A DNA stretch of 63,665 nt from Myxococcota bacterium (GTDB lineage Bacteria; Myxococcota_A; UBA796; CAJQPC01). The DNA is taken from the NCBI GenBank assembly GCA_036012755.1, contig DASCPX010000248.1, positions 1 through 63,665 on the forward strand, written 5' to 3'. A program made the translations under genes and the position numbers. Numbering within the stretch: position 1 is the first letter of the stretch; every line of letters starts with the position of its first letter. The notes under the pieces are model-generated. The model made no database searches, was not told the DNA's origin, and worked only from the letters and a program-made list of their open reading frames with translations. Shown here piece after piece: positions 34,732 to 63,665 of this stretch.

Positions 34732-35175
34732 GGTCGGAGTGGGCCGGGTGTCCGCCGGTGGGTTCGCCCACGGGAGGAAAGTCCGGGCTCCACAGGGCAG
34801 GTTGCCGGGTAACGCCCGGTCGCGGTGACGCGAAGGCAAGTGCAACAGAAAGCAGACCGCCAGCTGAGGCTCCGGACACCGGTCGAGGCCATCCCCGCGC
34901 AAGCGAGGTCGAGCGTCGACGAGGCCCGGCGGAGGTCACTCCGGGCAAGGTCGAAACGGTGGAGTAAGAGCCCACCGGCGACCCTGGTGACAGGGTCGGC
35001 CAGGTAAACCCCAGCTGGAGCAAGGTCGAACGAGGAGCAGTGGGTTGCCCACCCCATGTCTCCCAGGTGGACTGCTCGAGGCCGTCGGTGACGGCGGCCC
35101 TAGACGAATGGACACCGCCCCGCGAAGGGAGACCGACGCGGGGAACAAGACCCGGCTTAGAGGCCCACTCCGACC
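34732..35175 (+). ncRNA. rnpB: RNase P RNA, bacterial type A
   Basis: GAGGAAAGTCCGGGCTCC, AGTGCAACAGAAA, GGTAAACCCC and AACAAGACCCGGCTTA conserved regions; P1 helix GGTCGGAGTGGGCC / GGCCCACTCCGACC. Confidence 0.97.
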
Positions 35176-58459: not shown

Positions 58460-59410
<951 letters not shown>

Positions 59411-59415
59411 ACAGA

Positions 59416-59613
59416 GATGGCCTGATGCCGGTTGCTCGTCGCGGGCTACCCCATTAAGCGCGCCGCGACTCCGCTTCGATGTCGGGTTCGAGTCGGTCCG
59501 CACTCCGGGTGCGGTGCCGCGACGAACCTCAGGGCCCAAGGCATCGGGAGCGGCCACCCGGCCATTGTTGGCCCAAGGTGGATCGAACGCTGCGGCGAGT
59601 GGGTCCCGCCATC
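59416..59613 (+). ncRNA. Candidate structured RNA / rplY leader
   Basis: Multiple nested complementary segments read by eye (see findings); no family assigned. Confidence 0.5.
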
Positions 59614-59625
59614 CAGGAATCCCTG

Positions 59626-60267
59626 ATGGACGCCACACCGCTCTCGGCAAAGCCGCGCACGGACTTCGGCAAGGGTGCCGCGCGCAAGCTGCGTGCTACC
59701 GGCCACATTCCAGCGCTGGTCTACCGCGGCGGCGATCAGCCGACGCACATCGCCATCGACCCCAAGGAGCTTCGGCTCATCTTCCAGCGCTCGCAGAACC
59801 CCAACACCATCCTGCGGATCGAGGTGGAGGGGACCAGCCGCGCCTGCCTGCTCACCGCGACCCAGAAGCACCCGGTGAGCCGGGCGCTGCTCCACGCAGA
59901 CTTCTACGAGGTCGTCGAGGGCAGCGAGGTGACGGTGAAGGTCCCGGTCGTGCCCCAGGGCAAGGCCGTGGGCGAGGTCCTCGGCGGCGTGGTCCAGTAC
60001 ATCCGGCGCTACGTGCCGGTGACCTGCCTGCCCAAGCACATCCCGACCCACATCGACATCGACGTCACGGAGATGGAGCTCAACGAGGTCATCCGTGTCT
60101 CCGACATCACGGTGCCCGAGCACTGCCGCATCCTCTTCGACAACGACTTCAACGTGCTGTCCTGCAAGGGCCGCAAGCTCGAGCTCGAGGAAGACGAGCT
60201 CGACGAAGAAGAGGGAGAAGAGGGAGAAGAGGGCGAGGAAGGCGAAGAGGTCGAGGACGAGGGATGA
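59626..60267 (+). CDS. rplY: 50S ribosomal protein L25/Ctc
   Basis: R..FGKGAARKLR..G.IPALVY, Q.HPV...LHADFY; acidic tail. Confidence 0.96.
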   Translation: MDATPLSAKPRTDFGKGAARKLRATGHIPALVYRGGDQPTHIAIDPKELRLIFQRSQNPNTILRIEVEGTSRACLLTATQKHPVSRALLHADFYEVVEGSEVTVKVPVVPQGKAVGEVLGGVVQYIRRYVPVTCLPKHIPTHIDIDVTEMELNEVIRVSDITVPEHCRILFDNDFNVLSCKGRKLELEEDELDEEEGEEGEEGEEGEEVEDEG

Positions 60268-60908
60268 AGTTCGTCGTGGGACTCGGCAACCCCGGGAAGA
60301 AGTACGAGCAGACCCGCCACAACGCGGGCTTCCTGGTCGTGCGGCGCCTCGGGGAGCGCTGGGGCATCGACTGCCAGAGGAAGCAGTTCGGTGCCCTGGT
60401 GGGCGACGGCGCCATCCGCCACGAGCGGACGGTGCTCGCCATGCCGCAGACCTACATGAACCGCTCCGGTCATCCGACCCGCAGCCTGCTCGGCTTCTAC
60501 AAGGCAGGCGTCGACGACCTCATCATCGTCCACGACGACCTGGACATCCCCTTCGGCGAGCTGAAGCTCAAGAAGGGTGGGGGGCACGGCGGACACAACG
60601 GCCTCCGGGACCTCCACAAGCACTTCGGCGGGGGCGACTACCTGCGCGTGCGCTTCGGAGTCAGCCGGCCCCCAGAGGGCTGGGACTCCGCCGACTATGT
60701 GCTCGGTAAGTGGTCCTCGACAGAGCGCGATGGCCTCGATCAGGCCGTGGACCGCGCCGCAGATGCCGTCGAGGCCCTCCTCGGAGGCGACCTCGTGGCA
60801 GCCCAGAACACATTTCACGTTCGGACGTCCCGGCCAGAGGCCAGCGACGACACCGACCGTCCAGACGAATCCTCGAACCCGACCCTCGCGGTCGGAGGAG
60901 CTTATTGA
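60264..60908 (+). CDS. pth: Peptidyl-tRNA hydrolase
   Basis: [29 protein letters not shown] and GGHNGL. Confidence 0.97.
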
Positions 60909-60910
60909 CA

Positions 60911-63022
<2,112 letters not shown>

Positions 63023-63030
63023 GAAACCAA

Positions 63031-63665
63031 ATGATCGTCACTGAATACGAGACCATCTACGTGGTCAAGCCCGAGCTCCCCGAAGACGCGCTGGTCGCTC
63101 TCAACGACAAGGTCAACACCATCGTCGAGAAGAACCAGGGCACCATGCTGACCGTGGACGACTGGGGGAAGCGCAAGCTCGCCTACCCGATCCAGAAAAA
63201 CAGCAAGGGCCACTACGTCTACATCAACTACCTGGGCCCCACGACCCTCGTCGCCGAGCTCGAGCGAAACCTGCGCATCGAGGACAACCTGCTGCGCTTC
63301 CTCACCGTGAAGCTGGACATCGACGTGGACGTCGAGTCGCGGAAGGTCAAGGCCGAGGAGGACAACGCCCGTCGCGCCGAGCTCAGGGCGGCTCGCGCCG
63401 AAGCCGAGGCAGAGGCCCAGGCCGCGGCGGAGGCAGCGGAGGCCGAAGAGGCCGCACGCGCCGCCGCTCGAGCCGAGCGTGACGCCGCCAGGCGTGCCCG
63501 CGAGGAGGCAGAGGCCGCCGCCGCCGCCACGGCCGCCGCTGCCACGGCCACCGACGATGCTGCCACGGCCACCGACGATGCTGCCACGGCCACCGACGAT
63601 GCTGCCACGGCCACCGACGATGCTGCCACGGCCACCGACGATGCTGCCACGACCACCGACGACGC
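63031..63665 (+). CDS. rpsF: 30S ribosomal protein S6 with a long C-terminal extension (3' partial)
   Basis: MIVTEYETIYVVKPEL...WGKRKLAYPIQK...GHY...ELER.LRI...LLRFLTV; not in the ORF track because there is no stop in the window. Confidence 0.95.
   Translation, partial: MIVTEYETIYVVKPELPEDALVALNDKVNTIVEKNQGTMLTVDDWGKRKLAYPIQKNSKGHYVYINYLGPTTLVAELERNLRIEDNLLRFLTVKLDIDVDVESRKVKAEEDNARRAELRAARAEAEAEAQAAAEAAEAEEAARAAARAERDAARRAREEAEAAAAATAAAATATDDAATATDDAATATDDAATATDDAATATDDAATTTDD
63538..63663. repeat. 21-bp tandem repeat GCTGCCACGGCCACCGACGAT (5 perfect copies plus 1 variant) encoding AATATDD
   Basis: Directly visible; runs to the window end. Confidence 0.95.

Follow-up and report, generated by a model that had tools for sequence, protein, structure and literature searches.

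What is encoded in the 215-nt spacer that separates prs from rplY in a Myxococcota bacterium? We addressed this question in the window, a stretch of 63,665 nt (contig DASCPX010000248.1 of assembly GCA_036012755.1), in which the coordinates of both genes and the length of the gap agree with those of the original prediction (Table 1). From rplY to rpsF, consecutive genes overlap or are separated by no more than 8 nt, and the rpsF gene of the window has no leader of its own. In the host genome (G000), rplI comes after rpsF across a contig break and rpsR resides on a separate contig, outside the operon as in many relatives. In all, 80 of 80 genomes with both genes on one contig carry rpsF 1.2–3.7 kb 3′ of rplY on the same strand, as the third or fourth gene of the operon; the two genes are split between contigs in 9 of 89 pairs, where the splits look like assembly breaks. 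None of the 89 pairs is informative in separating L25 from S6:S18 by gene order.

Table 1. Features of the prs–rplY spacer and its operon, in window coordinates.
Feature	Position	Strand	Remarks
prs (ribose-phosphate diphosphokinase), upstream gene	58460..59410	+	NF002320 above cut-off
Predicted sigma70-type promoter	59432..59460	+	−35 TTGCTC 59432–37, 17-nt spacer, −10 TAAGCG 59455–60
P1 5′ arm	59471..59483	+	MFE; covariation
P2 hairpin, base of G–C pairs	59484..59529	+	46 nt here; 12–50 nt in relatives
Bulge CAGGGCCCAA, 10 nt	59530..59539	+	G59534 and CCA 59536–38 form the GNCCRN motif, putative S18 contact
P1 3′ arm	59540..59553	+	MFE; separate from the Shine-Dalgarno, in contrast to canonical S6:S18 leaders
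P3, variable linker hairpin	59554..59581	+	
P4 hairpin (family f1), loop presents the pseudoknot strand	59594..59610	+	80.9% of cells paired; double changes at 3 of 4 pairs
Pseudoknot strand TGGGTCC	59600..59606	+	Predicted to pair with 59532–38, 7 bp, −11.4 kcal/mol as a bare helix
Shine-Dalgarno AGGA (59615–18) and rplY start codon (59626)	59615..59628	+	
rplY, two-domain L25/Ctc, 213 aa	59626..60267	+	TIGR00731 above cut-off
pth, overlaps the rplY stop	60264..60908	+	
Membrane pyrophosphatase gene (hppA-like)	60911..63022	+	Start at 60905 or 60911
rpsF (S6)	63031..63665	+	8 nt past the pyrophosphatase stop; cut by the contig end

Several further features of these loci were noted. Directly after rpsF comes rplI in families f1, f3, f7 and some f5 genomes, and rpsR is kept in f2, f4, f6 and the other f5 genomes. 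The rpsR gene of G000 (C27:218194–218355) encodes 68 aa and has no CxxC motif. The S6 protein has a long C-terminal tail, of Ala/Glu and then TATDDAA repeats, that spans the contig break (window 63330–63665 and G000 contig C91). An RNase P RNA of class A at window positions 34736–35175 carries an insertion of ~65 nt relative to the Rfam consensus. In genus g7 (L007, L011 and L015), an extra ORF of ~200–250 codons separates prs from the rplY promoter, and promoter and leader stay with rplY despite this insertion. In other orders of the class (L256–L259), a different element lies between prs and rplY: a hairpin containing GGGAGGAG, and this stretch has a complement at the end of prs as well.

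The first ~55 nt of the spacer are probably a sigma70-type promoter. The pattern TTG..N16–18..TA recurs at 89 of 91 relatives' loci, with TTGACA or TTGACG in 71 of those 89 and a 17-nt spacer in 70. Because the −10 element of relatives mostly lacks its last T and a strict consensus scan of the window gave no match, we infer a transcription start near 59467; the conserved structure described below begins near 59467–59471.

To characterize this structure we collected the rplY loci of 96 genomes of the order, which comprises 154, together with 23 loci from other orders or beyond; four order loci with too little upstream sequence were set aside. A core was parsed as P1, P2, a 9–12-nt bulge ending in GNCCRN and the P1 3′ arm, with an energy no more than 5 kcal/mol above the local minimum free energy (MFE). 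It was found at 87 of the 92 usable order loci, mostly as the local MFE itself, and at none of the 23 outside loci, most of which have gaps of 10–70 nt. Four of the five unparsed order loci carry deviant copies by eye; the fifth, in G085, has a 56-nt gap before rplY and no leader. This genome (L110, L185), the sole one of the order seen without an rplY leader, keeps a CCR leader before rpsF. The G109 leader (L120) has a hairpin inserted within the bulge, upstream of GTCCAG.

Because the parser presupposed the GNCCRN motif and the first junction pairs, we added tests blind to them. In plain MFE folds of the leaders, 27 of 30 3′-side bulges of 7–14 nt end in GNCCRN, compared with 2 of 158 such bulges in 4,530 random G000 segments. 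A strict descriptor recovers 76 of the 87 leaders; as background, the 13.5 Mb of G000 (both strands) contain 758 core sites, or about 1% per 200 nt. P1 varies freely in sequence among relatives. Over 35 cores picked for their short P2, 95.2% of cells are paired (slid partners, only 36–50%), double changes occur at 11 of 12 pairs, and the covariation score was reached by 0 of 500 shuffles. Mapped on an L25 tree, both sides of P1 pairs 2–6 change on the same branch ~8–18 times each, these being coincident and not solely compensatory changes. The core has few invariant unpaired bases (G, C, C and R), its bulge measures 10 nt in 61 of the 87 leaders, and the first P2 pair, one that the parser required, is G–C in 85.

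In a search of 151 genomes of the phylum, a model built from the rplY cores (R1) had 12 matches at E < 0.001. All of these lie upstream of rplY in the order, and two of them come from outside the training set; none of nine inspected matches beyond the order lies ahead of a recognisable ribosomal protein gene. Neither blastn/nhmmer nor R1 found a second copy in G000. In the genome-wide search R1 fails to recover even the leader of the window, whose P2 is 46 nt long, and it gives a partial match (E 0.047) when run on 5.5 kb. The covariation supports P1 and P2 as conserved structure. The proposal of a cis-regulatory ribosomal protein leader outside Rfam is supported by its order-wide, covarying distribution and lack of an Rfam match, and the element appears to be a real, order-wide cis-regulatory RNA that is apparently undescribed.

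Conservation and covariation are found in related genomes, but for a structure different from the one originally predicted. That prediction closed positions 59416–59613 into two arms and read them as a 5S-derived or 5S-mimicking regulator, or else a 6S-like RNA. Its complementary stretches are present at the positions given, but as a whole the region folds no better than chance (z = −0.93 against shuffles for 59400–59635 and −1.66 for 59416–59613). With the three outer helices imposed, the energy is −88.0 kcal/mol, 9.4 worse than the MFE of −97.4, which contains the conserved core in their place. Two of these helices use promoter DNA (59421–59444), and pairing of promoter with core in relatives yields helices of chance length (mean 7.09 bp, against 7.04 bp in shuffles, n = 79). 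The inner helices CCGCAC/GTGCGG and CCACC-GGCCA/TGGCC-GGTGG do occur in the MFE, as portions of the variable P2 and P3, and GGCCCAAGG was correctly seen twice (59533–41 and 59570–78).

Rfam returned nothing at gathering score for the window spacer, only two chance matches at E 6–10, and no match for the leaders of 16 relative loci; 5S rRNA was not matched even at E ≤ 10. Loop E scores across the 87 leaders peak at 10 of 14, within the shuffle range (5S itself scores 14), and none of the 87 has the seven-pair symmetric internal loop. The likeness to 5S loop E amounts to a short CC..GG-closed resemblance in five leaders, and we dropped this CCAAGG/GAGUGG reading because its G's pair in P1 and because it fits only those 5 of 87. 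Although the complementary stretches do exist, a free-standing 5S-derived or 6S-like RNA over 59416–59613 is thus highly improbable: it has no Rfam 5S or 6S match, its closing helix is built of promoter DNA that is unconserved as pairing, the spacer holds no terminator-like site, and G000 has a single copy.

The bulge of the core has a candidate pairing partner downstream, a strand with GG mostly 40–70 nt beyond it. This pairing beats shuffles (p ≤ 0.05) in 34 of 87 leaders, distributed over the families as 14 of 22 (f1), 4 of 8 (f2), 3 of 26 (f3), 1 of 1 (f4), 8 of 11 (f5), 3 of 7 (f6) and 1 of 12 (f7), or 31 of the 61 leaders outside f3; the window's own pseudoknot taken alone is not above shuffles (p = 0.15). 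In the same 61 leaders, pairs 7 and 8 are formed in 77% and 80% compared with 51% and 41% expected, figures inflated by the choice of the partner as the best helix. We aligned 17 of the 22 f1 leaders with MAFFT, setting aside five near-duplicates. In this alignment the helix reaches 95% pairing, 2 of its 7 pairs show double changes, and P4 forms a 4-bp hairpin with the pseudoknot strand in its loop. Comparison of the window (GGGCCCA/TGGGTCC) with its closest relative (GAGTCCA/TGGACTC) reveals two compensatory pairs and one wobble. These comparisons indicate an H-type pseudoknot between bulge and downstream strand, with good support in five of the seven families; in f1 it takes the form of a loop–bulge kiss. 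In f3 the partner is mostly lost and the bulge motif is retained, so pairing alone fails to explain the motif. The intervening P3 hairpin, which is common to the genus only, repeats GGCCCAAGG and folds into a miniature stem–hairpin–CAA bulge.

What else could hold the bulge motif constant? Three papers describe a CCR bulge between the stem and hairpin of the S6:S18 leader (PMC3854524, PMC3895269, PMC4647458), and the cytosines and both stems are reported there as required for S6:S18 binding and repression (PMC3895269, PMC4647458). CCA 59536–38 of the window falls in just such a bulge of the MFE. We parsed canonical leaders at 26 of 52 rpsF loci examined, 25 of them in the order and one of these mis-parsed. 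The rpsF leaders and rplY cores have in common C–G and G–C junction pairs and a first bulge base C; bulges of both types end in GTCCA, GTCCG, GCCCA or GACCG, with the same spectrum over the last six bases. G occupies bulge position −6 in 26 of 26 rpsF leaders, although this parse did not demand it, and the first hairpin pair next to the bulge is G–C in 24 of 24. The two types differ in the second P1 junction pair, G–U in 22 of 24 rpsF leaders versus Y–R in all 87 rplY cores, and also in bulge length.

Cross-searches between the two were weak: a model of rpsF leaders dominated by their fixed Shine-Dalgarno stem (R2) scored the rplY cores at a best E of 2.8, and R1 gave two weak matches to rpsF leaders (E 0.076 and 0.9). 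Rfam gave no match to six canonical rpsF leaders either, so its silence says little on S6:S18 membership. On the protein side, S18 of G000 retains IKRAR, which we take to match K60/R63 of Escherichia coli, and 16S fragments of two relatives (G003 and G004) keep CCG at the S18 target junction; a search for such a fragment in G000 located none. The conserved nucleotides of the rplY leader point to S6:S18. Both leaders occur together in 20 genomes, where the rplY copy is unneeded for S6 feedback; in 15 others, G000 among them, the rplY leader is present and the gap preceding rpsF is ≤40 nt.

We therefore favour, at a probability of roughly 60%, a predicted S6:S18-sensing leader that heads rplY–pth–hppA–rpsF–rplI and whose pseudoknot competes with protein binding. 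Surplus S6:S18 would bind the open CCR bulge as on 16S rRNA. The pseudoknot would bury the CCR bases and make the protein-bound and pseudoknotted states mutually exclusive; it pairs both cytosines, so that S18 binding should be excluded, judging from the S6:S18 papers. Transcription reaches the core 40–70 nt ahead of the partner strand, a delay that would give free S6:S18 time to capture the core. Given S6:S18 as ligand, the odds are about even that the leader acts as a strand-release switch, in which the pseudoknot may be the ON state and protein binding may free the strand, letting the 3′ part refold over the rplY ribosome-binding site. Through translational coupling or polarity, repression would extend to pth, hppA, rpsF and rplI.

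Folding calculations bear on this output. In the window, the site costs 3.3 kcal/mol less to open once the partner is masked, the strongest effect among 11 masking windows tried, yet both states are predicted to contain the Shine-Dalgarno/AUG hairpin. Over a set of 86 leaders, masking opens the site by >1 kcal/mol in 42 and closes it in 7, with a mean effect of 1.5 versus 0.5 kcal/mol for control windows. The partner is the top-ranked window in 15 leaders versus 6.6 expected; distance and kinship confound this trend. A test over 36 genera revealed no covariation of the freed strand with its own ribosome-binding site (Wilcoxon p = 0.44). A universal anti-Shine-Dalgarno switch across leaders was not borne out by the folding and covariation tests, one of which covered about 60 of the 87 leaders, and an intrinsic terminator in the leader was rejected, U-tracts being present in just 2 of 87.

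Many riboswitches contain H-type pseudoknots whose linkers vary, and the leader may respond to a different input: L9 or another operon product, ppGpp or PRPP, temperature, or a pseudoknot that merely stabilises the mRNA or tunes translation. The presence of pth and the pyrophosphatase gene in the operon would fit such an input, as would the lack of a consistent output domain among the leaders. We judge it quite unlikely, however, given that the few invariant unpaired bases are all common to rpsF leaders and that no Rfam riboswitch match appears at E ≤ 5–10.

The main rival is autoregulation by L25, in which free L25 would bind either the pseudoknot in its folded state or the place where P1 meets it, repressing rplY, and the likeness to S6:S18 leaders would reflect duplication ancestry or convergence. 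L25 is a possible ligand: the leader lies directly before rplY and accompanies it in genus g7 despite the inserted gene, a separate rpsF leader coexists in the 20 genomes, and the pseudoknot would conceal the CCR from S18. Moreover, PMC4408793 presents E. coli L25 as a proven autorepressor that acts through a hairpin unlike loop E. Against L25, our leaders lack a loop E-like internal loop, a shortened four-pair version fits only five of 87 leaders, all in f1, and the conserved bases are S18 determinants. The known L25 operator is reported with one-domain L25 only (PMC10931766), and PMC7247131 indicates that the nearest gene is a poor guide to ligand. We consider L25 autoregulation unlikely on this evidence.

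Returning to the S6:S18-sensing leader, a fuller version is tentative: a duplicated S6:S18 leader may have turned riboswitch-like, with CCR-bound protein and pseudoknot competing co-transcriptionally and the freed strand controlling a distant ribosome-binding site. A 30S protein pair would thereby set the levels of L25, Pth and membrane pyrophosphatase, and L25 may bind the pseudoknotted state to give a two-input sensor of subunit balance.

How does the element compare with known leaders? In the literature searched, with most subscription papers outside it, we found no ribosomal protein leader before rplY beyond the Gammaproteobacteria, nor any S6:S18 leader that lies upstream of rplY or contains a pseudoknot; the supplementary alignment of PMC3895269 might contain deltaproteobacterial examples. 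The gammaproteobacterial L25 leader likewise occupies the rplY 5′ UTR, downstream of a sigma70-type promoter whose spacer measures 17 nt and whose discriminator is G+C-rich. It takes the form of an irregular hairpin that carries a weak GAGA Shine-Dalgarno and is confined to four families whose L25 has one domain (PMC4408793), whereas the element here has another fold, a normal AGGA Shine-Dalgarno and a two-domain L25. Two-domain L25 genes have no described regulator in the literature searched, and the element is a candidate for that role.

The likeness to the S6:S18 leader is closer: a stem, a variable hairpin and a 3′ bulge whose invariant CC(R) abuts the 3′ arm of the stem, in an operon that encodes S6. 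S6:S18 RNA is reported to precede rpsF invariably (PMC3895269), and published leaders hold the Shine-Dalgarno within their own stem (PMC3854524, PMC3895269, PMC4647458). In contrast, the element precedes rplY, and its Shine-Dalgarno (59615–18) lies outside the P1 3′ arm (59540–53), an arm that in rplY-type leaders is free in sequence and 70–200 nt from the start codon. The rplY-type bulge also has a downstream pairing partner and a tighter length, and rpsR is often outside the operon. With two defining features of S6:S18 leaders absent, we regard the element as a variant that probably works like such a leader rather than as a member of the class; its likeliest identity is a leader of S6:S18 type that has gained a pseudoknot. 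Such an element would be a clear instance of a ribosomal protein leader that was duplicated inside its operon and acquired a new output, by which the proteins of one ribosomal subunit may control those of the other, and the twenty genomes with two leaders offer a built-in paired control. Compared with the canonical S6:S18 leader, the rplY leader keeps the binding determinants, drops the Shine-Dalgarno-containing stem and adjacency to rpsF, and gains a predicted competing pseudoknot.
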